Positions 51,257-64,000 of a stretch of DNA of 64,000 nucleotides are shown one piece after another. The position numbers were made by a program, and so were the translations under genes. This DNA comes from Hyphomicrobiales bacterium. GTDB lineage: Bacteria > Pseudomonadota > Alphaproteobacteria > Rhizobiales > JACESI01. The notes beneath the pieces were generated by a model that had not been told where the DNA came from, did no database searches, and saw only the letters and a program-made list of their open reading frames with translations. The DNA lies in the NCBI GenBank assembly GCA_039964305.1, contig JBDVXS010000100.1:4924-68923 (forward strand), in the 5' to 3' direction. Positions within the stretch are counted from its first letter, which is position 1. Each line of letters opens with the position of its first letter.

Positions 51257-51628
51257 ATGTTTATAATTAAGTGCCCCTATTGCGGCGAACGTGACCAATC
51301 AGAGTTTACTCATGGTGGTGAAGCTCATATTGACCGACCAGAATGGCGTGATGACATGACCGACGCTGAATGGTCTGATTTCGTGTTTTTGCGTCACAAC
51401 GAAAAAGGCGTTATCGCCGAACGTTGGATGCATGCAGCCGGTTGCGGCAAATGGTTTAATGGCCTTCGCAGCACAATTACCGATGAGATCTATGGGTTTT
51501 ATAAAATAGGTGAGAAGCCACCTAAGGTTGATACAGCTGAGCCTGCAACGCCAGCTGGTGAGCTATTGGGTTCAGGCAATGATGCCGTAAAAGTTGTGGC
51601 AGAGCTTTCCGAAGGAGACGCGAAATGA
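51257..51628 (+). CDS. soxD: Sarcosine oxidase subunit delta
   Basis: CPYCGER..EF..GGEAHI.RP, ERW.H..GC. Confidence 0.95.
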   Translation: MFIIKCPYCGERDQSEFTHGGEAHIDRPEWRDDMTDAEWSDFVFLRHNEKGVIAERWMHAAGCGKWFNGLRSTITDEIYGFYKIGEKPPKVDTAEPATPAGELLGSGNDAVKVVAELSEGDAK

Positions 51629-54600
51629 GTACCTATCGTCTCGATAAAGGCGGTCTAATTGACCGCACAAAACCGCTGCGTTTTACCTTTGATGGTAAGC
51701 CTGTATTGGGTTTTGAAGGGGATACAATTGCCTCTGCGATGATCGCCAATGGTCAGCATATGGTTGGCCGCTCTTTCAAATATCACCGTCCGCGCGGTAT
51801 TTTGGGCATAGGCTCAGAAGAGCCAGCAGCACTCGTGCAAATGGGTGACGGCAATGCTGAAACCACGCCAAACGTGCGGGTGACAGAGCAAGAAGTATTT
51901 GCGGGCCTTTCCGTGCGTTCCCAAAATGCATGGCCATCCCTAGAATTTGATGTTGGTCGTATGAACGACTATGCATGGCGGTTCATTCCAGCTGGCTTCT
52001 ATTACAAAACGTTCATGGGCCCTCCGGGTGCTTGGATGATGTTTGAGCCGATTATTCGGAAAGCAGCGGGTCTCGGCAAAAGCCCGACGGAAGCTGACCC
52101 AGACAACTACGAGCACGTAAATCGTCACTGCGATGTGCTGGTCATTGGTGGCGGTCCTTCAGGCATTATGGCAGCAGAAGCTGCAAGCCTTGCTGGCGCG
52201 CGCGTTATCTTGGTTGATGAGAGCAATCAGCTTGGTGGCCAGTTGCTTGGTGAAACGACTGAAACAACGTTGAATGACCAAGAACCTGTTGAATGGGTGG
52301 TGGCTGCTGAGGCGGCTCTTCGTGCCCGTGAAAATGTCACTATTTTAAACCGCACAACTGCCTTCGGCTATTACGCGGAAAACTTTGTTGGCCTTTGGGA
52401 AAAATGCACTGATCACTTGGCCCCATCTGATCGTCCTGAGCGTGCGCCTCGCGAGCGTTTATGGCGGGTACGGGCAAAGCACGTTGTTTTAGCAACGGGT
52501 GCCATCGAACGCTCCATCGCGTTTCACGAAAATGATCGCCCAGGCATTATGCTTGCCAGTGCCGCGCAGACTTATGCCTATCGCTATGGCGCGTTGCCGG
52601 GCAAAAACATTCTTGTCTTTGCCAACAATGATGCCGCATGGACAAATGCTTTTGCGCTTAAAGAAGCAGGTGCGAACATCGCGGGCATCGTTGATGCGCG
52701 GCCAAGTATAGATGCGGGCCTTCTTGCAAAAGCTGCTGAAGTCAGCATTGATCTCTTCCCACGTTCTGGCATTGTTGGAACGAAGGGGCATGCGCGGGTG
52801 AAAGAAGCCTCAATCCGCACACTTGGCGAAGATGGTCAGCCAACAGGCGCGACCAAGCAAGTTGAATGTGATTTAATCGCTGTTTCTGGTGGCTATAATC
52901 CAAACGTATCCTTGTTCTCACAATCGCGCGGCAAGCTGAAATATGATGAAAATATTGCAGGCTTCCGCCCAGCGCATTCATGGCAAAAGGAAACATCTGC
53001 GGGCAGTTGTAACGGCGCGTTTGATCTTGCAAGCTGCCTAACAGAAGGCGTAAAAGCAGGAACGAACGCAGCAATTGCTGTGGGCTTCAAGGAAGCGAAA
53101 GTTGCGTCTTTGACCCTGAAATCTAATCAGAAGACAGCAGCAGAAACGTTTGAGCTTTGGGATGTGCCAAGCGGCACAGGTATCCAGCGTGCTTGGGTTG
53201 ACCTTCAAAACGATGTGACGGCTAAAGATTTGCGCCTTGCTGTGCAGGAAGGCTATAGCTCTGTTGAACACGCCAAGCGCTACACGACTATGGGCATGGG
53301 CACGGATCAAGGCAAAACGTCTGGCGTAACGGCCTTTGGTATTCTAGCCCAGACAATGGGTAAATCGATCCCAGAGGTTGGTGTTACAACCTACCGTCAG
53401 CCTTATAAATCTGTCAGCCTTGGCGCGATTGCGGGTCAGCATATGGGCGAACTATATGCACCACGACGCGGCACACCAATGCATGAATGGCACCGCGAGG
53501 CGGGCGCTCATTTTGAAACAGTTGGCGATTGGTTGCGGGCGTGGGTCTATCCACAAACGGGCGAGACTTGGCAGCGTGCAGTTCAGCGCGAATCCAAAGC
53601 GGCTCGGACGGGCATCGGCATCTTAGATGCTTCAACGCTTGGTAAGATTGATATTCGCGGCAAAGATTCCCGTGAGTTCTTGAACCGTATTTACACCAAC
53701 GCGTGGTCTAAGCTTGGCATCGGCAAATGCCGTTATGGCCTCATGCTCAAAGAAGACGGTATGGTGTTTGATGATGGTGTGACGACTTGCCTTGCTGATG
53801 ACCATTTTCACATGACAACAACCTCAGGCGGGGCGGCTGGTGTGCTGTCTCATTTGGAAGATTATCTCCAAACTGAATGGCCAGACCTTGATGTTTGGTG
53901 CACGTCTGTCACCGAAGAATGGGCAGTGTCTTCTATCTGTGGACCAAAGTGTCACCAGTTGATCGCTGACTTGTTTGGCGATGGATACGGTCCCGACGAT
54001 ATGCCGTTTATGACCATGAAGGAAACGGAACTAGAAGGTGTGCCTGTGCGCATCTTCCGCATTTCGTTTACGGGTGAGCATTCTTACGAGATCAATGTGC
54101 CATCTGAATATGGTCGCTGGTTCTGGGATACCTTGATGGAACATGGCGCACAATATGACATCACGCCATATGGCACTGAAGCGATGCACTTGTTGCGTGC
54201 TGAAAAAGGTTTCATCATTGTTGGCCAAGAAACTGACGGCACCATCACGCCGCATGATTTGCGGATGGACTGGATTGTAAGCCAGAAGAAGGGTGACTTT
54301 GTTGGTAAGCGTTCGTTGTTCCGCTCAGATACAGTGCGCAAAGACCGCCATCAATTGGTGGGACTTATCACCGAAGACCGCTCAAAAGTGGTGGATGAAG
54401 GGGCGCATATCATTGCAACGTCTACGGAGCCTGCGCCACCCGTTCCAATGCTCGGCCATGTAACCTCCAGTTATTATAGCCCGAACATTCAACGTTCCAT
54501 CGCGCTCGCCTTGGTGAAAGGCGGCGGGGATCGCATGGGTGAAACAGTTTATGTGACACAACGTGGCAATGGCGAACCAATTCAAGCGACCATTACCGAT

Positions 54601-54633
54601 GTCGATTTTCTTGCTGAAGGAGCCGCATCATGA
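51625..54633 (+). CDS. soxA: Sarcosine oxidase subunit alpha
   Basis: GRSFKYHRPRG, DLQNDVT, KRYTTMGMGTDQGK, GcvT C-terminal domain. Confidence 0.96.
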   Translation: MSTYRLDKGGLIDRTKPLRFTFDGKPVLGFEGDTIASAMIANGQHMVGRSFKYHRPRGILGIGSEEPAALVQMGDGNAETTPNVRVTEQEVFAGLSVRSQNAWPSLEFDVGRMNDYAWRFIPAGFYYKTFMGPPGAWMMFEPIIRKAAGLGKSPTEADPDNYEHVNRHCDVLVIGGGPSGIMAAEAASLAGARVILVDESNQLGGQLLGETTETTLNDQEPVEWVVAAEAALRARENVTILNRTTAFGYYAENFVGLWEKCTDHLAPSDRPERAPRERLWRVRAKHVVLATGAIERSIAFHENDRPGIMLASAAQTYAYRYGALPGKNILVFANNDAAWTNAFALKEAGANIAGIVDARPSIDAGLLAKAAEVSIDLFPRSGIVGTKGHARVKEASIRTLGEDGQPTGATKQVECDLIAVSGGYNPNVSLFSQSRGKLKYDENIAGFRPAHSWQKETSAGSCNGAFDLASCLTEGVKAGTNAAIAVGFKEAKVASLTLKSNQKTAAETFELWDVPSGTGIQRAWVDLQNDVTAKDLRLAVQEGYSSVEHAKRYTTMGMGTDQGKTSGVTAFGILAQTMGKSIPEVGVTTYRQPYKSVSLGAIAGQHMGELYAPRRGTPMHEWHREAGAHFETVGDWLRAWVYPQTGETWQRAVQRESKAARTGIGILDASTLGKIDIRGKDSREFLNRIYTNAWSKLGIGKCRYGLMLKEDGMVFDDGVTTCLADDHFHMTTTSGGAAGVLSHLEDYLQTEWPDLDVWCTSVTEEWAVSSICGPKCHQLIADLFGDGYGPDDMPFMTMKETELEGVPVRIFRISFTGEHSYEINVPSEYGRWFWDTLMEHGAQYDITPYGTEAMHLLRAEKGFIIVGQETDGTITPHDLRMDWIVSQKKGDFVGKRSLFRSDTVRKDRHQLVGLITEDRSKVVDEGAHIIATSTEPAPPVPMLGHVTSSYYSPNIQRSIALALVKGGGDRMGETVYVTQRGNGEPIQATITDVDFLAEGAAS

Positions 54634-55238
54634 CTTCGATAAAAGCCCCTTTTAAACAATCACCCCTTGGGCATCGTAGTGCCTTAACGGGCGATGGTGT
54701 TCAAATGAGCGAACGGGCTCACCTGAACAAGACGATGTTGCGTGGAGACTTGGAAACGCTTGGTTCAGCTGTAGCCTCTGTTGCAGGTGCCAATGCGCCA
54801 ACGGCGAGCCAATCAACCTATACTAAAACGTGTGATGTCCATTGGATTGGGCCAGACACGTTGATGGTTTTGGCGGGCGAAGGCGAAGCGCTTGCTGACA
54901 GTTTTTCAAGCGAACTGGATGGCAAAGCTTGTCAGGTAGCGAACATTTCCAACAACTACACCGTGATTGAATTATCAGGTGCTAGGGCGAGAGATGTTTT
55001 GCAAAAACTTTCAACGCTGGATTTGGATGCTGCAGCCTTTGGTAAGGGCGCGGTTGCGGGCACTGTGTTTGCTCATTCAAATGTTGTGTTGGCTTGCCGC
55101 CTCGATGCGCCCGATACTTTTGACATCGTAATCCGCCGTTCTCATGCGGATTATCTTTGGTGCCTCATCGCTGATGCTGGCTACGAATATGGTTTCGATA
55201 AACAGGCAATCGTTGCCGGTGAAACACTGCGCCAATAG
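54630..55238 (+). CDS. soxG: Sarcosine oxidase subunit gamma
   Basis: WIGPD, LSGARARDVL, RRSHADYLW; last gene of the sox operon. Confidence 0.9.
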   Translation: MTSIKAPFKQSPLGHRSALTGDGVQMSERAHLNKTMLRGDLETLGSAVASVAGANAPTASQSTYTKTCDVHWIGPDTLMVLAGEGEALADSFSSELDGKACQVANISNNYTVIELSGARARDVLQKLSTLDLDAAAFGKGAVAGTVFAHSNVVLACRLDAPDTFDIVIRRSHADYLWCLIADAGYEYGFDKQAIVAGETLRQ

Positions 55239-55270: not shown

Positions 55271-55570
55271 TTAGAGTTTGTTTGAAAGTCGTGCATATCT
55301 GACTTTCTGTAATTCGCAGGCTGCGTTTTGATCAATCGGTAGTTTTGATGCCCATGTGACATCTCCTGCTGTCAGGCCAATATCATCCAATGTACGACGA
55401 TCAAGGGTTTGCAGGTTCTTAAATGCATCCCGCCGCTCAGCATGGGCGCGGTAGGTTGCGATTGCCTGTTGCAGTTTACCAAATGTATTTTCAATGCTGA
55501 TTAAAAGTTGATCGAAAAGGCTGTGCTGAGTGCTGTCTGGATGGGCGTTCATTTGTTCACATAAAGTCAT
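55271..55570 (-). CDS. DUF1127 domain protein
   Basis: L..LDRRTLDDIGLT.GDV motif; divergent from a LysR gene. Confidence 0.85.
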   Translation of the reverse strand: MTLCEQMNAHPDSTQHSLFDQLLISIENTFGKLQQAIATYRAHAERRDAFKNLQTLDRRTLDDIGLTAGDVTWASKLPIDQNAACELQKVRYARLSNKL

Positions 55571-55671
55571 TGTATTATCCTTTGATTTAGAAAAGCTTCA
55601 TTTCGTCTTGTCTTGTTCAACAATATTGATGATAAAGCTTGTTCAATCAAACGAAATGATCTAATGTGTAA

Positions 55672-55688
55672 GTTCAGAAAAATTGAAC
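55672..55688. promoter_or_regulatory. LysR-type T-N11-A inverted repeat
   Basis: GTTCA-gaaaaat-TGAAC between the divergent DUF1127 and LysR genes. Confidence 0.55.
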
Positions 55689-55712
55689 TGACCGTTCCAA
55701 TGAGGTTTCATC

Positions 55713-56621
55713 ATGAACAAGCACTCAGACGCTCCGGTGAATTTCAACGTACTCGCTCTCGAGTTGGACTTGTTGAAGACGTTCACAGCGATCGTTGATA
55801 CAGGCAGCTTTAAAGGGGCGGCGGAGCTTGTCTTGCGCACGCCTTCCGCCATCTCCATGCAGGTGAAGAAGCTTGAGGACATTGTCGGACGCCCGTTGTT
55901 TATTCGTGATGCACGTTCGGTAAACCTTACGCAGGACGGTGAAGTGTTGCTTGCTTATGCAAGGCGTTTGCTCAGTCTTTCAGATGAAGCGCTTGGCCAT
56001 TTTAGAAAGCCACAAATGGAAGGCGTTGTTAGCCTTGGCGCGCCAGATGATTATGGCAGTCGTTTCTTACCGAGCATTCTAAAACGGTTTTCCGTCACGC
56101 ACCCAGGTGTCGTAGTGGATGTGGTGATTGATCAAAGCTCTGCTTTGCGTGATCGGGTGAAAAAGGGGAAGCTCGACTTAACCCTAATCTCCTGTGATGG
56201 CGCGGTTGCGAGTGATCCTGATATTGAAGTGATCTTGGAAGAAAAACTCGTTTGGACAGGGGTCAAAGGCGGTTGCGCCCATTTGCAAGACCCGCTTCCT
56301 GTTTCCATGTGGGAAGAGGGCTGTGCGTGGCGCTCTAATGCTGTTTCAGCGCTTGCAACCAAGGGGCGTGACTATCGGGTTGCTTATATGAGCGCCCATA
56401 GTTCTGGGCAAAAAGCAGCGGTGCTCGCTGATCTTGCCGTTGCGCCTTTTCCAAAAAGCTTGCTTGATCATCCCATGCAAGAGCTGCGCGAAGAAGACGG
56501 TATGCCAGAGCTCAATACCTATAATATCGGCCTGTATAAAAAACCAAATGCGGGCGATGCTGTGCTTGCTGTTGCAAGTCACATTCGTTCTGCTTTTGAG
56601 GAACATCAAGCGCGTATTTAA
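55713..56621 (+). CDS. LysR family transcriptional regulator
   Basis: LKTFTAIVDTGSF..AA...RTPSAISMQVKKLE HTH, LGAPDDY. Confidence 0.95.
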   Translation: MNKHSDAPVNFNVLALELDLLKTFTAIVDTGSFKGAAELVLRTPSAISMQVKKLEDIVGRPLFIRDARSVNLTQDGEVLLAYARRLLSLSDEALGHFRKPQMEGVVSLGAPDDYGSRFLPSILKRFSVTHPGVVVDVVIDQSSALRDRVKKGKLDLTLISCDGAVASDPDIEVILEEKLVWTGVKGGCAHLQDPLPVSMWEEGCAWRSNAVSALATKGRDYRVAYMSAHSSGQKAAVLADLAVAPFPKSLLDHPMQELREEDGMPELNTYNIGLYKKPNAGDAVLAVASHIRSAFEEHQARI

Positions 56622-56627
56622 ACCGCG

Positions 56628-58718
56628 TTAGCCACGCCTTGCTCGTCCGCCACGTCTGCGTCTGCCACCGCCTGCAGGGTCACTGCCTTCAGCAGGCGCT
56701 GTTTTTTCTGGCAGGGCCACTTCTTTTGCAAGATTTGGAAACGGGTCCACCTTGTTCGGCAATGCCATCGCATTGACGAACAGTTCTTGGAACGCAGGTT
56801 CAAGGGCTGTTTCAATCTTTTCGATCTTTCCAACCATCTGTTCAATCTCGTCGCGGTAGCCTTTATTCAAAAGCGCCATGCGCGCGCCAGTGCCTGCGGC
56901 ATTACCAACAGCGTTGACCTCACTAAGGTCGCAATCAGGGATAAGACCAAGCACCATCGCGTATTTCGGGTCAATGAAGTTTCCAAACGCGCCTGCAAAT
57001 TTGATTCTGTGCACTTGCGTAACGCCAAGCTTATCCATCAAAAGGCGTACACCCGCATAAAGGGCCGCTTTTGCAAGCTGGATCGCGCGGATGTCTGTTT
57101 GTTTGATGATGAGATCAGGGTTTCCATTCTCACCACGCCAAGCGACATAAGAGAAGGTGCGACCATCTTCAATCACGCGGTCTGACAGGGCCGCTTTTGT
57201 GCCATCAATAATGCCGTCTTCGGTGATAACGCCTGCAAGAAACATTTCTGCCACGACTTCGATAATGCCAGAACCACAAACGCCGGTAACGCCTGTTTCT
57301 TTTACCTCGTCCACAAACCCTTCATCATCAGACCATTTCTCAGATCCAATAACGCGGATCCGCGGCTCGAGTGTTTCTGGGTTGATGCGAATGCGCTCGA
57401 TAGCACCGGGTGCTGCGCGTTGGCCGCAAGAAATTTCAGCGCCTTCAAAGGCGGGGCCAGTGGGTGATGAAGCTGCAACCGTGCGGTCTTTTGAACCAAG
57501 TACGATTTCTGCATTGGTGCCCACATCAACCAGCAGTGTAATCTCGTCTTCTTCATAAGGCCGCTCTGCTAATGTCGCAGCAGCAGCATCAGCCCCCACA
57601 TGGCCTGCAATACACGGCAAGGTGTAAACCCGTGCACCTTCGTTGAGGTTTATCTCAAGGTCACGTGCTGGCAGGGTGAGGGCATCTGATACGGTAAGGG
57701 CAAACGGTGCTTGGCCAATTTCTGTTGGATCAAGCCCGAGGAACAAGTGGTGCATGATTGGATTGCCAACAAAGGTGGCCTCCAATATGTCGTCACGCGC
57801 CACTTCAGATTGCTCGCAAATATCAGCAATCAATCCATCAATCGCTTCGCGCACAGATTTGGTAAGCGCTACTTCGCCGCCTTTGTTCATCATCACATAA
57901 GAAACGCGAGACATCAGGTCTTCGCCGAAACGGATTTGTGGGTTGGCAACACCAGCAGAAGCAATTGTGTCACCTGTCATCATGTCAGATAGGTGCATCG
58001 CGATGGTGGTAGAGCCGATGTCGCAGGCAAGGCCGTAGAGCTTTTCGCGGTAACCAGGCCATAGGGCTGTTACCGTGTGCACACCGCCTGCTGAATGGAC
58101 AGCCGCAGTCACGGCCCATTCGCCTTTGCGAAGGACGGATTGCAGGGTTTTGTAGAGATGAAAATCAACGCTGAGATTATCATAACCCCAGTCTTCTTTC
58201 AGTTGACGAACAAGACGGTCCGCATCACCGAGCGGCTTATGCATGTCTGGTTCTTCAACTTCCACGTAACGAAGATGGGTCGCCAAATCGCGCGGAATGT
58301 CGCGGGTGTCGGCGGCCTTGCGCACCATTTGATTGTTGGCGCTGGCTGCTTGCGGAATATCAATGACGAGGTCGCCATTAATCTTCGATGAGCAAGAAAG
58401 ACGGCGGTCATCTGCAAGCTCGCGCTTAGATTTATAGCGTGCTTCCGTATCAGAGAATTGCGAGAGATTGTCGGCACTACTGGTGATGCCGTGTTTGGCA
58501 AATTGACCTTCCGCGACACTGACCTGACACTTACCGCAAATGCCGCGACCACCGCAGACACTTTCGACATAAACGCCGAGTTCTCTTGCTGCATCAAGCA
58601 CGGGCGTGCCAACGGCAAAGCGCCCGCGTTTGCCTGATGGCATAAACAGCACAAGCGCGTCATCTTTTGATGGCGCGCCTGTGGTTGAAATTGTATCTGG
58701 TTTTGGCTGCTCGTTCAT
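56628..58718 (-). CDS. ASKHA-family ATP-dependent corrinoid reductive activator (RACo/RamA-like) with [2Fe-2S] domain
   Basis: CGGRGICGKC...RLSC ferredoxin, DIGSTT, DVGTNAE, GPAFEG, GVCGSG, LAGAFG-like FAGAFG. Confidence 0.9.
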   Translation of the reverse strand: MNEQPKPDTISTTGAPSKDDALVLFMPSGKRGRFAVGTPVLDAARELGVYVESVCGGRGICGKCQVSVAEGQFAKHGITSSADNLSQFSDTEARYKSKRELADDRRLSCSSKINGDLVIDIPQAASANNQMVRKAADTRDIPRDLATHLRYVEVEEPDMHKPLGDADRLVRQLKEDWGYDNLSVDFHLYKTLQSVLRKGEWAVTAAVHSAGGVHTVTALWPGYREKLYGLACDIGSTTIAMHLSDMMTGDTIASAGVANPQIRFGEDLMSRVSYVMMNKGGEVALTKSVREAIDGLIADICEQSEVARDDILEATFVGNPIMHHLFLGLDPTEIGQAPFALTVSDALTLPARDLEINLNEGARVYTLPCIAGHVGADAAAATLAERPYEEDEITLLVDVGTNAEIVLGSKDRTVAASSPTGPAFEGAEISCGQRAAPGAIERIRINPETLEPRIRVIGSEKWSDDEGFVDEVKETGVTGVCGSGIIEVVAEMFLAGVITEDGIIDGTKAALSDRVIEDGRTFSYVAWRGENGNPDLIIKQTDIRAIQLAKAALYAGVRLLMDKLGVTQVHRIKFAGAFGNFIDPKYAMVLGLIPDCDLSEVNAVGNAAGTGARMALLNKGYRDEIEQMVGKIEKIETALEPAFQELFVNAMALPNKVDPFPNLAKEVALPEKTAPAEGSDPAGGGRRRRGGRARRG

Positions 58719-58764
58719 TGCGCCAATATATCCTTAATTCCTAGATGAAACCTTGGTTTTAAGC

Positions 58765-59694
58765 TTAGCCTCGGCGTGACGCACGGCCACCGCGACGACG
58801 CCCACCACCAGCACCTGCGCCTGCTTCGGCACCAGGCGTTGGCTCACGGTAGGTCGCAATCCAATTTGCACAATGCTCATCTGTCGACATCAACACATTT
58901 GCTGCACGCACCATTTCCATCTCTTGCGGACGGCATGGGTTCATAATGGCGGATGTCATGCCAGAGGCGATTGCCATCGGCAAGAAGGCAGCATTGATGC
59001 CGTGACGGTGTGGCAGACCGAATGACACATTTGATGCGCCACACGTTGTATTCACACCCAGCTCTTCGCGCAAACGACGCACAAGGGCAAACACCTGAAG
59101 GCCAGCCGTTCCCATCGCGCCAATCGGCATAACAAGAGGGTCGACAACGATGTCATGGGGAGGAATGCCATAATCGGCAGCATGCTCGACAATTTTTTTT
59201 GCAACCTCAAAACGCACATCAGGGTCTTCTGAAATGCCTGTCTCGTCATTAGAAATGGCAACCACTGGCACGTTGTACTTCTTGATAAGCGGAAGGATCT
59301 CTTCAAGCTTTTCAGTTTCACCTGTCACAGAGTTCACCAAAGGGCGACCTTCTGTTACAGCCAAGCCTGCTTCAAGGGCGGATGAAACGGAGCTATCAAT
59401 ACAAATTGGAACATCAACCAAGCTTTGTACAAGCTTCAAGGTTTCAACAAGCAGTGGCGGCTCGGTTGTGTTGGGATCAACGGCGGTAACGCCTGCGTTT
59501 ACATCCAACATGGTCGCACCAGCAGCAACTTGCTCCAATGCGTCTTTTGTCACGGTATCAAAGTTACCAGCCTGCATTTCAGCAGCTAGCTTTTTGCGGC
59601 CTGTTGGGTTGATGCGCTCACCGATGACGCAAAATGGTTCATCGAACCCAATATAAGATTCTTTGGTTTTAGAAGCGACGAGAGTGCGCGTCAT
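58765..59694 (-). CDS. Methyltetrahydrofolate:corrinoid methyltransferase (pterin-binding domain)
   Basis: IGERINPTGRK, LDVNAG, IDSS, VNSV, GASNVSFGLP. Confidence 0.92.
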   Translation of the reverse strand: MTRTLVASKTKESYIGFDEPFCVIGERINPTGRKKLAAEMQAGNFDTVTKDALEQVAAGATMLDVNAGVTAVDPNTTEPPLLVETLKLVQSLVDVPICIDSSVSSALEAGLAVTEGRPLVNSVTGETEKLEEILPLIKKYNVPVVAISNDETGISEDPDVRFEVAKKIVEHAADYGIPPHDIVVDPLVMPIGAMGTAGLQVFALVRRLREELGVNTTCGASNVSFGLPHRHGINAAFLPMAIASGMTSAIMNPCRPQEMEMVRAANVLMSTDEHCANWIATYREPTPGAEAGAGAGGGRRRGGRASRRG

Positions 59695-59798
59695 TTGATG
59701 TTCCTTAAGTGTGACTGCTCTCTAGCACCAGACACAGGAAGAGCGTCTGGGCAAAAGCATGACCAAAATTCTAAACAAGAAGGGAGGTGTGGGCAGCG

Positions 59799-60728
59799 TT
59801 AAAGCTGATTCACATCTTTCTCATTATCATATAAAGATATGTTTATATCCCATGAGCCGCGTTCTACAAGCCATTCGGACGATTTTTTTAGCCCTCCGAA
59901 CGGAAAAACGTGCATTTGGGCGAGTGGACCCTCAGAATTCTCCTGCCAAAACGCCTCAATCGGCTCAACAACTGGTTCTGGAGAGTGTGATGTTGCAAGG
60001 GCTGTCAGGGCGCCTGCACGCTTTTTGAGGAAGGTGAGGGAGTTGCCCACACCACTCATGGCAGCGAATTTGATAAGGGTCGTAATCTTTGCAGGGCCAG
60101 CAACACCAAGATGGATTGGTAGGTCAATGCCCATGGCTTTCACATGCCAAGCCCAGTTTGCAAAAGCTTCGCCGTCAAAACCGAACTGTGTGACGATACG
60201 CAAAGCGGCGTCGGTTTCGCTTTGAAACTCTGCCTTCTCGCGCAAGATATTATAGACTTCACCTTCAGGGGCAGATGGATTGCCTTCAGGGTGACCTGCA
60301 ACGCCCATGCCCTTAATGCCGTATCGATCAAAAACGCCTGTCCGCATCACTTCAATAGCAGATGAATAAGGACCCATTTGGCGGTTTGCTTCACCAGCAA
60401 TAACCAGCACATCATCAAGACCACCCACTTCTGTGAGGCGCTTAATGTGGCTTTCTAATTCGTCTTCTGAAGCCAGACGGCGCGCGGCGATGTGTTGAAC
60501 GGGCTTATAGCCTGCATCCACAAGGCGCTTTGACACTTCTGCCAGCTGCTCGTGGCTATGCGTGCCAATGTCTGTCACATAAGTGCGCGTACCTGCTGGG
60601 AAAAGGCCGATATATTCGTCCTTTTCGAGGATGTGTTTTGGGGACACTTCAATAGAGGCGGGGATATGGGCATTAGCAGCGCTCATTGGTGTCTCCGCGT
60701 TCAACATGTCAGCCGTCTTGTGGGCCAT
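59799..60728 (-). CDS. metF: Methylenetetrahydrofolate reductase-like flavoprotein
   Basis: SIEVSP, HIAARR, GVAGHPEG, IVTQFGFD, HVFPFGG; GGAGG SD before MAHK. Confidence 0.82.
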   Translation of the reverse strand: MAHKTADMLNAETPMSAANAHIPASIEVSPKHILEKDEYIGLFPAGTRTYVTDIGTHSHEQLAEVSKRLVDAGYKPVQHIAARRLASEDELESHIKRLTEVGGLDDVLVIAGEANRQMGPYSSAIEVMRTGVFDRYGIKGMGVAGHPEGNPSAPEGEVYNILREKAEFQSETDAALRIVTQFGFDGEAFANWAWHVKAMGIDLPIHLGVAGPAKITTLIKFAAMSGVGNSLTFLKKRAGALTALATSHSPEPVVEPIEAFWQENSEGPLAQMHVFPFGGLKKSSEWLVERGSWDINISLYDNEKDVNQL

Positions 60729-61038
60729 CCTCAAATCCTCCAGCATGAACGAGATTTTTCACCCGTTCCTTGGTGTAGGCAGCTTCCAATTCGGCAGCTG
60801 CCTGTTCTGCTTCGGCTTCGAGGTCTTCTCCACAGGGAATAGGATCACTCTTGCGCCATTGCTCTAAATAAGCATCAGATTGATCGAGACCAGTGCGCAT
60901 CGCGCAAGCGTCAATCGCCGTGATGAAACGTTTATCGAGTTCGCGCTTTGCTGTTGTCCGCCCAGCCTTGCAAATAACTTGCGCTGGGATATCCCGCCAA
61001 TAGACAATGTGTTTTTGAGCGGCTTTAGAACGTGGCAT
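60709..61038 (-). CDS. Virulence_fact family small protein
   Basis: IVYWRDIPAQV...RF..AID..AM...DAYL.QWR signature; coupled to metF. Confidence 0.85.
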   Translation of the reverse strand: MPRSKAAQKHIVYWRDIPAQVICKAGRTTAKRELDKRFITAIDACAMRTGLDQSDAYLEQWRKSDPIPCGEDLEAEAEQAAAELEAAYTKERVKNLVHAGGFEDGPQDG

Positions 61039-61175
61039 AGTGTTTCCTCTTGGGCTTGAAGGTGATCGTTATTCGCTAAACACGATGATTTGCCCGCGAC
61101 TTGTCAATGTCGGATTTAGGCTTGTTTGTGGGAAACTTGGTCTAATGCTTAATGAAGGCACGGAATACTTAGGGG

Positions 61176-61868
61176 TTAAGCCTTTAAATGAGAAAGGCTG
61201 TTCGCCAAATCACCATAACCTGTTGCGCGATATTCAAAGTCGAGTTTCAACCGCTCAGCAATCTCTTTTGCCCGCTTTAAGAGCGCCTCATCCTCGATTT
61301 GCGCGAGATAGACGACCTTTTCATAAGCACCGAAATACATGTCTAGCAGTTCGGGATGTTTTTCCATACCAAGCGGACCCCAAGTGAGGCCATCGAAGTG
61401 GCGGGCTAGGAAGTCGGTTAGGAAGAAAGCGCGCATGTCTTCTTCTTCGCGCTCTTTGAAATCATCAACGCCCGAAAAGAACGCATAACAATGCGCACCG
61501 GGCAGGCGGTCAACGTTTTCACGCTCTAGCAATGCATCAAGTTGCCCCCCGGTGCCGCAATCAGCATATCCGCAATAGATATGTTGAAACCCAGCATCAC
61601 GCGCATCGGCAATGGCGCGTTCCACGGCGGGCGTAATTGCTTGCGGTTCGTTATGAAGTTTTGCGGGAAGGCAGGTCAGCGAGATGTGGTCGAGGTTATT
61701 TAACTTAACAACATCAAGTATTTCGTGTGCCAAAGCACCACAGGCGATAACGCAGACAGCTTCTGCGTTTACGGGTTTTGTGTAATTGGGCGCGCCTTTT
61801 TCAACGAGCGGCTCAACAGACGAGACTTCTTGAAGTCTCGCCGATCTGCCACCTCGTCGTTTAGACAT
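61176..61868 (-). CDS. DUF1638 domain protein
   Basis: IACGAL, CLPAKLHN.P, YADCGTGG, HCYAFF, FFLTDFL. Confidence 0.9.
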   Translation of the reverse strand: MSKRRGGRSARLQEVSSVEPLVEKGAPNYTKPVNAEAVCVIACGALAHEILDVVKLNNLDHISLTCLPAKLHNEPQAITPAVERAIADARDAGFQHIYCGYADCGTGGQLDALLERENVDRLPGAHCYAFFSGVDDFKEREEEDMRAFFLTDFLARHFDGLTWGPLGMEKHPELLDMYFGAYEKVVYLAQIEDEALLKRAKEIAERLKLDFEYRATGYGDLANSLSHLKA

Positions 61869-61882
61869 GACGTGTGCCGCCT

Positions 61883-62578
61883 TTAAGCGCGCTGGTTGTG
61901 GCGACGTGCGATCATCTCTGATGCTTTTTCAACAGTCACCGCCGCATCGCGACAATAAGAATCGGCACCAATCGCGTCACCAAACTCTTCGTTGAGTGGC
62001 GCACCACCAACAAGAACGATGTATTTATCGCGGAGTTCTTTTTCTTTCAGCTGATCAATCACAACCTTCATGTAAGGCATTGTGGTTGTAAGCAGCGCCG
62101 ACATCCCAAGGATATCTGGCTCATGTTCTTCAAGAGCTGCCAGAAATTCGTCCGCATCAGTGTTGATGCCAAGGTCATGGACATCAAAGCCCGCGCCTTC
62201 CATCATCATCCCAACAAGGTTTTTACCAATGTCGTGAATGTCGCCTTTAACGGTGCCAATAACCATAGAGCCAAGCTTCGGCGCACCTGTTTCAGCAAGG
62301 AGTGGGCGCAAGATAACCATGCCAGCCTTCATCGCATTGGCAGCAAGAAGAACCTCAGGCACAAACAAAATGCCGTCACGAAAATCAACACCGACAATAC
62401 GCATGCCTTCAACCAGCGACTTGGTCAAAATATCATAAGGTGTCCACTTGCGTTCAAGCAGGATTTCAACCGCCTCAACAATCTCTTCTTTCAGACCATC
62501 ATAAAGGTCATCCATCATCTGAGCGACAAGATCGTCATCGTTCAATTCGGATAAGATGATTTCTTCTTCATCGGACAT
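61883..62578 (-). CDS. Stand-alone cobalamin-binding (corrinoid) protein
   Basis: FVPEVL, GTVKGDIHDIGKNLV (DxHxxG), SALLTTT, GGAP. Confidence 0.95.
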   Translation of the reverse strand: MSDEEEIILSELNDDDLVAQMMDDLYDGLKEEIVEAVEILLERKWTPYDILTKSLVEGMRIVGVDFRDGILFVPEVLLAANAMKAGMVILRPLLAETGAPKLGSMVIGTVKGDIHDIGKNLVGMMMEGAGFDVHDLGINTDADEFLAALEEHEPDILGMSALLTTTMPYMKVVIDQLKEKELRDKYIVLVGGAPLNEEFGDAIGADSYCRDAAVTVEKASEMIARRHNQRA

Positions 62579-62798
62579 TCAAAAATTCCTTACAAGCTAC
62601 AGGCTAAATGTTTTAGCTCATTCGACGCTACGGTAAATACCTTAATATTGAATTTGCCATAAGAAATACGCAAGCGGCGTCAAAAACAGGGCGCAAACAA
62701 GCCATTCAATAAAAAAATCTCATTCTATTTACAATACAGAAGATTAATTGATGCTATTTCTTTTTGTGCATCAGCGATGAACGAGGACATTTTTAGCG

Positions 62799-64000
62799 AT
62801 GAGTACGAGCGAAACGGAAGAAAATCAGGGTGGACGCAGCAGGCGTGCGGGCCGTGGTGGCGGTCGCGACGCACGGCGGGCTAAACGCGGTGGTACAGCC
62901 AGCGTCAAGCTTCCGTATATCCAGCGCAAACTCAAACCTTTTGAAGTGTTTGATGATGAAATGGCCGAAAAGATTGAAGCGAATGCTGATGTCATTTTGG
63001 AAGAAATAGGCATTGAGTTTCGTGATGACCCTGAAGCGATAGCTATGTGGCGTGAAGCGGGCGCTGATATTGATGGCGAACGGGTGCGTTTTCCTAAAGG
63101 TATGTTGCGTGAACTTATCAAGACAGCGCCACGTGAATTTACACAGCACGCCAGAAATCCAGCACGTTCCGTGCAAATTGGTGGCAACAATACAGTGTTT
63201 GCCCCTGTTTATGGCCCTCCTTTCGTGCGCACACTGGAAGGTGAGCGCCGTTATGCGACGATTGAAGATTTTCGCAGTTTCGTAAAGCTCGCCTATCTGG
63301 CGCCGGCTATGCACCATTCGGGTGGCACGGTCTGTGAGCCTGTCGACATTCCTGTCAATAAACGTCACCTCGATATGGTCTATAGCCATATCCGCTATTC
63401 TGACATGCCCTTTATGGGGTCGGTCACGGCACCTGAGCGGGCGCAAGATTCGGTTGATATGGCCAAGATCGTTTTTGGCGACGATTTTGTTGATCAAAAC
63501 TGTGTTTTATTGAATCTCATCAACGTCAATTCACCAATGACTTATGATGACACCATGTTGGGTGCGGCCAAAGTTTATGCCCGTAACAATCAAGCGTGCA
63601 TCATCTCGCCGTTCATTTTGGCAGGTGCCATGTCTCCTGTGACGGTTGCTGCGACACTTTCACAAATTCTGGCTGAAGCAATGGCTGGTATTGCGTTTAC
63701 GCAGTTGTGTCGTCCAGGTGCCCCAGTTTTGTTCGGCACATTTGCTAGTTCCATCTCCATGCAATCAGGCGCGCCAACATTTGGCACGCCAGAGCCAGCC
63801 TTGGTGCTTTATGGTGCGGCTCAACTGGCACGACGCTTAGGCGTTCCGTTCCGTTCTGGTGGTTCACTGTGTGGTTCTAAAGTAGTTGATGCACAGGCAG
63901 CCTATGAGAGCGCACAGACCATCACACCAACGGTTATGGGGGGCGTGAATTTCGCACTCCATTCAGCCGGTTGGTTAGAAGGTGGCCTTGTGTCGTCTTT
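62799..64000 (+). CDS. Non-pyrrolysine MttB-superfamily methyltransferase (MtgB-like), truncated by window end and absent from the ORF track
   Basis: Own translation from ATG 62799: MSTSETEENQGGRSRR...ILEEIGIEF...FAPVYGPPFV...SGGTVCEPVD...NSPM...PFILAGAMSP...GAPTFGTPE...RSGGSLCGSK...DAQAAYES; Leu (CTG 63867) at the Pyl-equivalent site. Confidence 0.93.
   Translation, partial: MSTSETEENQGGRSRRAGRGGGRDARRAKRGGTASVKLPYIQRKLKPFEVFDDEMAEKIEANADVILEEIGIEFRDDPEAIAMWREAGADIDGERVRFPKGMLRELIKTAPREFTQHARNPARSVQIGGNNTVFAPVYGPPFVRTLEGERRYATIEDFRSFVKLAYLAPAMHHSGGTVCEPVDIPVNKRHLDMVYSHIRYSDMPFMGSVTAPERAQDSVDMAKIVFGDDFVDQNCVLLNLINVNSPMTYDDTMLGAAKVYARNNQACIISPFILAGAMSPVTVAATLSQILAEAMAGIAFTQLCRPGAPVLFGTFASSISMQSGAPTFGTPEPALVLYGAAQLARRLGVPFRSGGSLCGSKVVDAQAAYESAQTITPTVMGGVNFALHSAGWLEGGLVSS

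Follow-up and report, generated by a model that had tools for sequence, protein, structure and literature searches.

What do the arginine-rich termini do that recur on unrelated enzymes encoded around one small corrinoid protein? The question arises in a Hyphomicrobiales bacterium (JACESI01; assembly GCA_039964305.1), from which we studied a 64,000-nt window (contig JBDVXS010000100.1, positions 4,924-68,923). The genes and segments concerned, numbered within the window, are:

56628..58718, minus strand: RamA/RACo-like reductive activase of the corrinoid protein, 696 aa (Pfam Fer2, RACo_linker, Raco_middle, RACo_C_ter)
56631..56672, minus strand: activase C-terminal tail GGGRRRRGGRARRG, then stop (DNA and translation)
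58765..59694, minus strand: MtgD, methyl-THF:corrinoid (pterin-binding) methyltransferase, 309 aa (Pfam Pterin_bind; NCBIfam NF005719 over residues 21-286)
58768..58809, minus strand: MtgD C-terminal tail GGGRRRGGRASRRG, then stop, preceded by a variable Ala/Gly/Pro linker (DNA and translation)
59799..60746, minus strand: MetF2-like methylenetetrahydrofolate reductase, without a tail (Pfam MTHFR)
60709..61038, minus strand: Virulence_fact (PF13769) protein, without a tail (Pfam)
61176..61868, minus strand: DUF1638 protein, 230 aa (Pfam DUF1638)
61833..61868, minus strand: DUF1638 N-terminal Arg cluster MSKRRGGRSARL, lineage-specific (DNA and translation)
61883..62578, minus strand: MtgC-type corrinoid protein, 231 aa, with a cap and a B12-binding Rossmann domain (Pfam B12-binding_2, B12-binding)
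62459..62578, minus strand: acidic N-terminal 40 residues of MtgC, predicted to form a flexible extension of ~13 residues and the first two cap helices (composition, AF2 model)
62799..64000, plus strand: MttB-superfamily methyltransferase (MtgB-like), extending beyond the window, 522 aa on the contig (Pfam MTTB)
62829..62894, plus strand: MttB N-terminal Arg/Gly segment GGRSRRAGRGGGRDARRAKRGG, residues 11-32 (DNA and translation)

Pfam bore out the assignments across the locus (Fer2 and RACo domains, Pterin_bind, DUF1638, B12-binding_2 and B12-binding, MTTB, MTHFR, Virulence_fact). Full-length MttB matches model positions 1-500 of 500 in Pfam MTTB, and its residues 8 to 522 match PDB 4yyc (E 2e-254). 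The gene for MtgE, the homocysteine methyltransferase, lies just past the window end, and its product carries a fifth Arg tail. The locus encodes a known aerobic system, MtgB/MtgC/MtgD(/MtgE), which demethylates glycine betaine and acts as a split methionine synthase, accompanied by a RamA-like activase and DUF1638. This MtgBCD(E) system, a three-part split methionine synthase, has been described in Phaeobacter inhibens (Price et al. 2018, PMC5764234, in excerpt) and Ruegeria pomeroyi (Mausz et al. 2025, PMC12478193). Gene set and domain content are alike, the enzymes themselves do not differ, and several MttB paralogues occur per genome here as in both reports; MtgC is 77-78% identical to corrinoid proteins of Ruegeria loci and 78-79% identical to those of Sinorhizobium loci. 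What we add are the Arg tails on the enzymes that MtgC serves (its clients) and the acidic extension of MtgC itself, neither of which is mentioned in these papers: supplements aside, the words "arginine", "tail", "terminus" and "disordered" occur 0 times in Mausz et al., and the excerpted text of Price et al. has no relevant occurrence of such terms.

The first-pass annotation had pointed to four Arg/Gly stretches, on the activase, MtgD, DUF1638 and MttB, and all four are present in the sequence. It was also right that they are no DNA repeat, the best matches between tail DNAs being a 15-nt family at 80% and a 21-nt inverted pair at 76%. The activase tail closes a 41-residue C-terminal extension (the NCBIfam AcsV model stops at residue 655). 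The MtgD tail is predicted to be disordered, with a confident core in the AF2 model and pLDDT < 50 over residues 290-306. In MttB, the conserved core begins near residue 38, downstream of the Arg/Gly segment, and all four MttB paralogues of this genome have an Arg cluster before the core.

Such tails are rare in this genome (3.33 Mb, GC 48.5%). Among stop-to-stop ORFs of at least 100 aa, only 5 of 6771 end in a 16-mer with R>=5 and R+G>=9. Three of these encode the activase, MtgD and MtgE of this locus; the remaining pair comprises a ribosomal-S3-like protein, identified by eye from its sequence, and a probably spurious 123-aa ORF. The pattern at the locus therefore exceeds chance. Relaxing the cut-off to at least 5 Arg in 12 residues lowers specificity: 20 C-termini and 44 N-termini then qualify among 3089 ORFs of 150 aa or longer. 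Unrelated proteins of this genome with similar Arg clusters include the ribosomal-S3-like protein, an ExbD-like protein and others.

We then counted Arg clusters over orthologues from 80+ related loci. At least 5 Arg in 12 C-terminal residues were present in 37/37 activases. MtgD orthologues had at least 4 Arg in 12 in 39/39 cases and at least 5 in 27/39; MtgE orthologues carried a tail in 48/48, and 36 of 41 MttB orthologues had at least 4 Arg in 12 before the core. All 30 MttB paralogues fetched from five other genomes (24-62% identical to the window protein) also have an Arg cluster before the core, which fits many donors sharing one carrier. The tails do not depend on gene linkage: in five genomes where the genes are unlinked, they are kept on MtgD (5/5) and the activase (5/5), and this was repeated in five more genomes. 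Tails are hence conserved on proteins that are obliged to contact the corrinoid protein, as first proposed for MttB, MtgD and the activase, and likewise on MtgE, outside the first-pass view. By contrast, C-terminal Arg clusters were found in none of the non-client neighbours (MetF2, 0/13; Virulence_fact, 0/47; a Cys-rich 227-aa protein, 0/20), which agrees with the earlier claim for the first two; MtgC itself has one in 0/86 sequences.

Conservation concerns composition. An alignment of 49 MtgD sequences shows at least 90% conservation at R300, R301, G303, R304 and R307 but no consensus in the linker. Across clades, the constant element is an Arg cluster within a disordered terminus, with no fixed motif common to all families, so the idea of a single shared motif was not sustained; the tail sequence differs between clades, and there is thus no defined binding motif. 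This would suit tails that bind polyanions in general (RNA, DNA, polyphosphate or acidic lipids) and gather the enzymes at a cellular site or condensate, with MtgC recruited indirectly if at all. In composition the tails are similar to RG-rich tails that bind nucleic acids, Arg/Gly termini being typical of RNA- and polyanion-binding proteins, and the same type of cluster sits on the ribosomal-S3-like and other unrelated proteins of this genome. We nevertheless consider general polyanion binding unlikely, since it leaves unexplained why only MtgC clients in the locus bear tails while MetF2 and Virulence_fact have none, and why tails and the acidic extension of MtgC are gained and lost jointly, as described below.

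The carrier is charged in the opposite sense. As the first-pass annotation had it for residues 1-38, the first 38-40 residues of MtgC contain 15 Asp/Glu and 1 Lys; residues 1-40 have a charge of -14, and the whole protein has a net charge of -24 and a pI of 4.36. The AF2 model (pLDDT 88) has residues 1-8 as low-confidence coil and helices at 14-26 and 30-42. This acidic N-terminus is conserved in 80/80 related corrinoid proteins, which are 76-89% identical to MtgC. Anaerobic relatives begin later: their corrinoid proteins lack the first 12-20 residues of window MtgC, anaerobic MtgC profiles start at its residue 16, and the NCBIfam anaerobic MtgC models match it below their cut-offs.

A sister clade of 21 metagenome loci has the same operon (MttB, corrinoid protein, pterin methyltransferase, activase and DUF1638), with HcyMT and MTHFR as well at two loci. 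None of its proteins scored for tails had one (0/21, 0/11, 0/2 and 0/11), and its corrinoid protein begins ~10 residues later, without the acidic N-terminal extension. The first 30 residues of that protein have a charge of -1 to -5 versus -10 here, and the corrinoid protein as a whole is much less acidic (-11 versus -20). Both tails and acidic extension are also absent from L084, another corrinoid cluster of an alphaproteobacterium, and from two-piece MetH. No Arg tail was found on any fused or two-piece MetH gene product in the genomes examined, a terminal Arg cluster occurs in only 2 of 28 stand-alone pterin methyltransferases that represent their clusters, and the solved anaerobic MtgB, MtgA, MeTr and RACo chains, judged by their chain boundaries, begin or end at the core with no terminal tail. 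The survey of co-occurrence that the first-pass annotation had proposed thus gave joint presence in the proteobacterial clade and joint absence in the sister clade, L084, two-piece MetH and solved anaerobic homologues. Since tails and extension are missing together in sister-clade, anaerobic and fused relatives, five features change together, although this co-variation is one evolutionary transition in related lineages and not a set of independent replicates.

The sister clade bears on three further explanations. First, the tails might offset the charge of very acidic enzymes or help to keep them soluble, or each might act in cis on an acidic surface of its own enzyme, with no role in finding MtgC. 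The client cores are indeed all acidic (activase -30, MttB -18, MtgE -15, MtgD -14), but the tail-less sister-clade cores are equally or more so (MttB, -23 versus -16), acidic non-client neighbours such as MetF2 (-14) are tail-less, and a +5 tail barely shifts the net charge of a -30 protein. We regard this as improbable; the tails follow the acidity of the carrier, not that of the clients. Second, the tails could be tolerated low-complexity extensions without function. The sister clade runs the same split system without them, so they are not required in principle, and their sequence differs between clades. Yet no complete orthologue examined lacks them, across four unrelated folds and a genomic GC range of 48% to well over 60%, while the adjoining linkers vary freely, and we find an absence of function very hard to credit.

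Third, the docking site of the tails may lie on some other common partner (DUF1638, the activase, or a protein for cobalamin delivery or chaperoning) instead of the MtgC N-terminus, or the tails may drive client oligomerisation. DUF1638 is an acidic protein (core -16) described as without known function in the excerpted text of Price et al. (2018, PMC5764234), and its gene adjoins that of the corrinoid protein in 77/80 loci. However, seven tail-less sister-clade loci retain DUF1638, the activase bears a tail itself, and among the features compared only the acidic MtgC extension tracks the tails; we regard docking elsewhere as improbable too. The first-pass annotation had instead predicted, from its own tail, that DUF1638 is a partner of the corrinoid protein. 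This prediction failed: an N-terminal Arg cluster occurs in 3/78 orthologues when the first ATG is taken as the start, and in no more than 14/78, a frequency equal to the background seen on the N-side of other families. The tail on DUF1638 does exist here but is confined to a few lineages, and it gives no support to partner status. Genetics in Phaeobacter shows that the system needs this protein (Price et al. 2018, PMC5764234, in excerpt), yet it is usually tail-less, so a tail is no general mark of a functional partner; the link of DUF1638 to the system rests on gene adjacency and these published genetics.

From the directly observed anatomy, conservation, restriction to clients and joint presence or absence of tails and acidic extension, we infer, at even odds, that the tails contact MtgC as electrostatic tethers between the clients and its acidic cap, and that this contact matters for activity; the first-pass interpretation as a whole is partly supported. 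One small carrier, MtgC, serves four kinds of client in succession: MttB-family methyl donors, MtgD as methyl-THF methyltransferase, MtgE as homocysteine methyltransferase and the ATP-dependent RamA-like activase. Each client has a terminus, predicted to be disordered, made of a variable Gly/Ala/Pro linker and then a cluster of 5-8 arginines, and the putative counterpart on MtgC is its conserved acidic N-terminal extension and very acidic cap. Such tethers would raise the encounter rate and the local concentration of each client on MtgC; because the cap is the putative target, they may also help keep it away from cobalamin during methyl transfer.

The chemistry is shared with anaerobic three-component corrinoid methyltransferases (D. 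hafniense MtgB/MtgC/MtgA; Methanosarcina MttB-MttC and MtaB-MtaC; RACo/RamA activases), which have the same folds and the same logic of donor methyltransferase, corrinoid protein with a movable cap, acceptor methyltransferase and ATP-dependent activase. The termini differ. The D. hafniense MtgB chain, whose tag is described in PMC13080624, starts at about residue 44-47 of window MttB, RACo (3zyy) stops 9 residues past the core, and MtgA (4o0q) and MeTr stop at the core, whereas the activase and MtgD here extend with tails. In MttB-MttC, docking displaces the cap; specificity comes from cap contacts with the dimerisation loop in that pair and from an extra N-terminal domain in MtaC, and the excerpted text of PMC9842639 attributes neither to charged tails.

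The Hcy, pterin, cap and B12 modules of MetH are homologous to MtgE, MtgD and MtgC, but they are covalently linked there and separate proteins here, and reactivation falls to an AdoMet domain in MetH and to the RamA-like activase here. The tails would replace, in function, the covalent linkers that join the modules of single-chain methionine synthase. Acyl carrier protein, with its acidic helix II facing basic patches, and SSB, with its acidic C-terminal tip, are likewise small, very acidic shuttles or hubs that serve many enzymes by complementary charge. Their partners offer the basic element as a surface patch or pocket on a folded protein, whereas in this system every client would supply it as a disordered Arg tail, whose binding is putative. 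Judged from sequence, the conserved pairing of tails with an acidic front end looks like an undescribed electrostatic docking device.

The genes of interest occupy the 56.6-64.0 kb region of the window and continue past its end on the same contig (C100), within a host assembly of 3.33 Mb and 48.5% GC:

56.6-64.0 kb region, minus strand: activase (RamA/RACo-like), 696 aa, with a 2Fe-2S ferredoxin domain and three RACo domains
56.6-64.0 kb region, minus strand: MtgD, pterin-binding methyltransferase, 309 aa (PF00809)
56.6-64.0 kb region, minus strand: MTHFR-like protein (MetF2)
56.6-64.0 kb region, minus strand: Virulence_fact protein, 109 aa (PF13769)
56.6-64.0 kb region, minus strand: DUF1638 protein, 230 aa
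56.6-64.0 kb region, minus strand: MtgC, corrinoid carrier, 231 aa, with a B12 cap and a B12-binding domain (PF02607 and PF02310)
Crossing the window end, plus strand: MttB-family methyl-donor methyltransferase, 522 aa on the contig (PF06253, 1-500 of 500 positions)
Locus L081:3377-4060, just past the window, between MttB and MtgE, plus strand: Cys-rich protein, 227 aa, with CxxCxxxxC...C motifs
C100 70059-71075 (L081:4057-5076), past the window end, minus strand: MtgE, homocysteine methyltransferase, 339 aa (PF02574)

By gene content, this locus is the aerobic MtgBCDE/RamA/DUF1638 system, all of whose sequence features were found: MtgC, MttB, separate MtgD and MtgE, and an activase together with DUF1638. 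The available text of Price et al. (2018; PMC5764234) describes the same genes in Phaeobacter inhibens as a three-part split methionine synthase with RamA-like and DUF1638 proteins, and that of Mausz et al. (2025; PMC12478193) describes them in Ruegeria pomeroyi as the MtgB/MtgC/MtgD/MtgE glycine-betaine demethylase and methionine synthase. MtgC is 76-89% identical to the corrinoid proteins of 80 related loci, including Ruegeria, Leisingera, and Sinorhizobium records, and scored below the cut-offs of the anaerobic MtgC models NF047995 and NF047996 of NCBIfam (183.9 versus 310 bits and 194.5 versus 370), both matches beginning at its residue 16. The MttB frame is open over 522 aa with no internal stop and falls in the non-pyrrolysine MttB superfamily, and MtgE gives a full-length match to the NCBIfam "betaine--homocysteine S-methyltransferase" model. 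The Cys-rich protein, for which no match was found in Pfam or NCBIfam, may be an Fe-S protein acting in reactivation. In the ORFs as listed, the Virulence_fact and MetF2-like genes overlap by 38 nt (window 60709-60746); the MetF2-like start may lie further downstream. Upstream, the window stretches 51625-55238 and 55271-56621 together hold genes for proteins of 1002 aa and 202 aa that, reading by eye, we take to be sarcosine oxidase alpha and gamma subunits, followed by a DUF1127 protein and a divergent LysR-type regulator; this putative gene set would fit a complete betaine-to-glycine demethylation neighborhood.

The first-pass annotation had reported Arg/Gly-rich terminal stretches on four of these proteins, all of which were recovered in place; a fifth, on MtgE, is encoded beyond the window and was out of that annotation's view:

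Activase C-terminus: GGGRRRRGGRARRG, then stop
MtgD C-terminus: GGGRRRGGRASRRG, then stop
DUF1638 N-terminus (61833-61868): MSKRRGGRSARL
MttB residues 11-32: GGRSRRAGRGGGRDARRAKRGG
MtgE C-terminus: NAPRRERRGRRRG, then stop

We considered whether these tails have a trivial origin. In agreement with the first-pass annotation, they are not a DNA repeat, the best inter-tail DNA matches being 15 nt at 80% and 21 nt at 76%, and a GC artefact is ruled out by the genome GC of 48.5% and the mixed Arg codons. A Tat signal at the MttB N-terminus was also rejected: beyond its Arg segment comes GGTASVKLPYIQRKLKPFEVFDDE, which lacks a hydrophobic stretch, and three tails are C-terminal. Within the window's own 48.5%-GC genome, to which all genome-wide counts refer, a strict rule (C-terminal 16-mer with R>=5 and R+G>=9) picked out 5 of the 6771 stop-to-stop ORFs with 100 aa or more, namely activase, MtgD, MtgE, and two outside the locus. 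One of the latter (123 aa) is probably spurious, and the other, read by eye, is presumably ribosomal protein S3. Ten ORF segments genome-wide have R+G>=10 in a 12-residue window, three of them within this locus. A looser rule (at least 5 Arg in 12) marked 20 C-termini and 44 N-termini among 3089 ORFs of at least 150 aa, with many doubtful frames and some unrelated proteins, so the mere presence of an Arg cluster does not single out this system.

To assess conservation, we scanned one genome per species and obtained 598 stretches encoding MtgC relatives. The best 80 of these loci (76-89% identical) belong to Alphaproteobacteria, among them Roseibium, Hoeflea, Sinorhizobium, Ruegeria, Leisingera, and SAR116. 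At a distance of up to 10 kb from the corrinoid gene (blastp E < 1e-10), DUF1638 was found near or beside mtgC in 77 of the 80 loci, MtgE in 47/80, Virulence_fact in 44/80, MttB, MtgD, and activase in 39/80 each, the Cys-rich protein in 34/80, and MetF2 in 16/80. Tails were counted in these 80 loci plus seven from other genomes, taking orthologs with at least 40% identity, at least 60% query coverage, and a complete terminus. We adopted the number of Arg in 12-residue windows because an earlier criterion (net charge of at least +5 in 16 residues) missed Glu-containing tails, giving for example only 16/48 for MtgE.

Arg-rich termini of MtgC clients (orthologs with at least 5 and at least 4 Arg in a 12-residue window)
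Activase C-terminus: at least 5 Arg, 37/37; at least 4 Arg, 37/37
MtgD C-terminus: at least 5 Arg, 27/39; at least 4 Arg, 39/39
MtgE C-terminus: at least 5 Arg, 47/48; at least 4 Arg, 48/48
MttB, 45 residues preceding the core: at least 5 Arg, 19/41; at least 4 Arg, 36/41

In MttB, the tail is longer and has two parts (GRRxRG...AARRAAR). As first noted from the window, MetF and Virulence_fact lack the feature: at least 5 Arg at the C-terminus occurred in 0/13 MetF2 and 0/47 Virulence_fact proteins, and likewise in 0/86 MtgC, 1/78 DUF1638, 0/20 Cys-rich, and 0/40 MttB C-termini. In an alignment of 49 MtgD sequences, R300, R301, G303, R304, and R307 each reach 90% conservation or more, and the linker before them has no consensus. 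A homolog search with MtgD gave at least 120 proteins, those listed all being close relatives (at least 80% identical). With the tails kept across these orthologs and the linkers free to vary, we regard it as very improbable that the tails are functionless. In a scan of the 80 loci for more tailed proteins, 168 of 267 matches were unassigned ORFs, reflecting Arg-rich alternative frames of high-GC DNA.

The first-pass annotation had proposed a short linear motif on each partner, and no fixed residue pattern was found to run through the four or five families and the clades. GGR-x-x-RR is seen in MtgD and a good many MttB proteins; most activase tails are simple runs of 5-7 Arg, MtgE tails resemble RRERRGRRRG, and residue order differs in other clades. 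The sole element common to all clients is an Arg cluster in a predicted-disordered terminus; in an AF2 model of MtgD, pLDDT is below 50 over residues 290-306.

Tails also occur on proteins whose genes lie apart. Five genomes were reached by way of Rhodobacterales-type loci, and all have a tailed MtgD (5/5) and a tailed activase (5/5), as do five further genomes (again 5/5 and 5/5), one of which yielded no MttB. The five Rhodobacterales-type genomes encode 5-11 MttB paralogs each (44 matches in total). All 30 that were fetched, one with an uncertain start (L129), have at least 4 Arg in the 12 residues directly ahead of the core, and 24/30 have at least 6 Arg in 24, although their identity to the window MttB is only 24-62%. 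The four MttB paralogs of the window's own genome all begin with Arg clusters. In that genome, the three further to the window MttB, each with an Arg-rich N-terminus, are:

Contig C153:1276-2805
Contig C158:1612-3159
Contig C27:13281-15032

Those on C153 and C158 adjoin genes for proteins of ~810-835 aa, which we take from their N-terminal sequence, read by eye, to be dimethylglycine-dehydrogenase-like, and not a corrinoid gene. We rejected pyrrolysine in the C158 paralog, as the TAG lies past the end of its 516-aa open frame and is the gene's own stop codon. In one genome (G164; loci L085, L134, and L141), MtgC is present and DUF1638, MtgD, and activase are tailed, and no MttB-family gene was found; there, the system may serve only as a split methionine synthase. 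Separately, the PDB entry 4yyc ("putative trimethylamine methyltransferase", 525 residues) matches residues 8 to 522 of the window MttB (E 2e-254), and its deposited chain includes the Arg-rich N-terminus.

DUF1638 does not follow this pattern. A partnership with the corrinoid protein had been predicted from its tail, and that tail is not conserved: when the start was required to lie downstream of the corrinoid gene's stop, it was present in 3/78 orthologs from the first ATG and in at most 14/78 from any start codon. Counting at least 5 Arg on the N-terminal side gave 12/78, equal to the background from upstream read-through in high-GC DNA (activase 7/39, Virulence_fact 5/47), and many orthologs have no room for an N-terminal tail. 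The credible tails are those of the window and of L001, its nearest relative, of L011 and L053, which are two assemblies from a single Roseobacter species, of L085, and perhaps of L044; G164, for instance, has MTNEPAPRKRRRRHAG... and the Roseobacter species has VRRGGRSARR, and most orthologs have none. These Arg clusters look like separate acquisitions in a few lineages, and the tail gives no basis for calling DUF1638 a partner. The idea rests instead on gene adjacency and on the methionine auxotrophy and phylogenetic profile in the available text of Price et al. (2018; PMC5764234).

We then turned to the carrier. MtgC has the acidic start that had been described: its first 38-40 residues include 15 Asp/Glu and a single Lys, and the protein has a net charge of -24 and a pI of 4.36. 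The acidic start is conserved in 80/80 loci. In an AF2 model (pLDDT 88), residues 1-8 form a low-confidence coil, and the remaining acidic residues lie on cap helices 14-26 and 30-42. Across 401 genomes of the phylum, including one unpublished genome (G383), MtgC matches are bimodal, at least 68% identical in 37 and otherwise MetH-like (at most 38%). MttB occurs in 37/401, 36 of them shared with MtgC, with one carrier-only genome and one holding only an MttB fragment; this co-occurrence leaves no set of MttB-without-MtgC genomes for comparison in the phylum. In two MtgC-positive genomes from other families of the phylum (L082 and L083), the acidic start occurs together with the tails.

Systems without tails provide the converse. 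A locus in a genome of the same taxonomic order (L084, G284:C59) encodes a distinct corrinoid protein clustered with an activase and a pterin-binding protein (36%, 32%, and 27% identical) with no tails, and none were found in two-piece MetH (L089 and L090). Solved anaerobic homologs, judged by chain boundaries with which NCBIfam profiles agree, differ in the same way: D. hafniense MtgB has its first residue at query position 44-47 (its N-terminal tag is covered in the available text of PMC13080624); RACo (3zyy) ends 9 residues past the core; MtgA (4o0q) and MeTr stop at the core; and the chains of the corrinoid proteins 1y80, 7xcn_M, and 4jgi set in at residues 13-22 of the MtgC query. Searching MtgD against 1.84 billion cluster representatives, 88 of the best 150 covered the core, 60 of them fused or longer; of the 28 stand-alone representatives, only 2 (65.5% and 41.7% identical) have at least 5 Arg in 12 near the end. 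The nearest tail-less representative is 53% identical to MtgD, and its metagenome relatives form a sister clade of 21 loci (L142-L162; GC 66-71%) whose operon encodes MttB, corrinoid protein, pterin methyltransferase, activase, and DUF1638, with HcyMT and MTHFR in two loci. Here, tails were found on 0/21 pterin methyltransferases, 0/11 activases, 0/2 HcyMT, and 0/11 MttB proteins; the activase ends 0-1 residue past the core, and in 8 of the 11 MttB proteins an upstream stop codon leaves at most 16 residues. The corrinoid protein begins ~10 residues later, with a first-30 charge of -1 to -5 versus -10 in the window MtgC.

Tails and the acidic N-terminus, whose co-occurrence across orthologs the first-pass annotation had proposed to survey, are thus jointly present in the 80-locus clade, L082, and L083 and jointly absent in the sister clade: four tails and the carrier extension change together, on five different proteins. 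By its gene content, the sister clade shows the tails to be an addition and not a necessity. Could the tails offset the acidity of their own proteins? Median core charges in the sister and proteobacterial clades are -11 versus -20 for the corrinoid protein, -23 versus -16 for MttB, and -23 versus -18 for activase. The tail-less client cores are equally or more acidic, so the tails track carrier acidity and not client acidity, and charge or solubility compensation, or an action in cis, seems improbable. Docking on another shared partner such as DUF1638, a gene close to mtgC and present in the tail-less operon too, is improbable to a similar degree. The tails resemble RG/RGG-type nucleic-acid-binding tails in Arg/Gly-rich composition and, for MtgD 290-306, predicted disorder; general polyanion binding or condensate formation, which this likeness would suit and beside which the coupled change of the carrier must be set, is unlikely, if less so than the two preceding readings.

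We suggest, with about even confidence, that the tails tether the clients electrostatically to MtgC, at its acidic cap and N-terminal extension. Each client would be brought to the carrier by its tail, which would take over the role of the covalent linkers of MetH. A complex prediction of MtgC with MtgD residues 262-309 scored 0.00 against a mark of 0.32, in a run without controls and with the partner fold uncertain, and weighs on neither side. The cap leaves cobalamin when a methyltransferase docks, according to the available text on MttB-MttC (PMC9842639), and we speculate that a cap-bound tail might also stabilize this open state. A bolder version of the tether, which we consider rather unlikely, is a portable address system in which Arg tails and the acidic cap would define one carrier's clientele and tail-cap binding would do mechanical work. 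Every donor, acceptor, and repair enzyme using MtgC would then be tagged, including as many as 11 MttB paralogs in a genome and also the DUF1638 proteins of a few lineages, and a cap-bound tail would keep the cap off cobalamin. Alternatively, a dynamic multi-enzyme cluster around MtgC might limit Co(I) exposure in the oxic cytoplasm. Under this version, new MtgC clients could be predicted from their tails by sequence alone, and the tag pair could be transplanted to wire enzymes to a carrier.

The enzyme system is already known; the tails were not found described in the open full-text literature, subscription journals aside, and a term search of the main texts of Mausz 2025, Price 2018, a 2025 bioRxiv MtgBCD preprint, and a 2026 MtgB paper gave nothing relevant on them. 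According to the available text of Mausz et al. (2025; PMC12478193), MtgBCDE is highly expressed and is a major route by which marine and soil bacteria demethylate glycine betaine and make methionine. The portions of the MtgBCDE literature examined do not explain how a single 25-kDa corrinoid protein can serve many donors along with two acceptors and a repair enzyme, and a charge-based tether on every client would be a simple answer. The tail-less sister clade offers a natural comparison system. If the tethering reading is true, the tails would be a sequence mark by which clients of the carrier are recognized, and the locus would show how a multi-domain, MetH-like enzyme splits into separate proteins with its efficiency kept.
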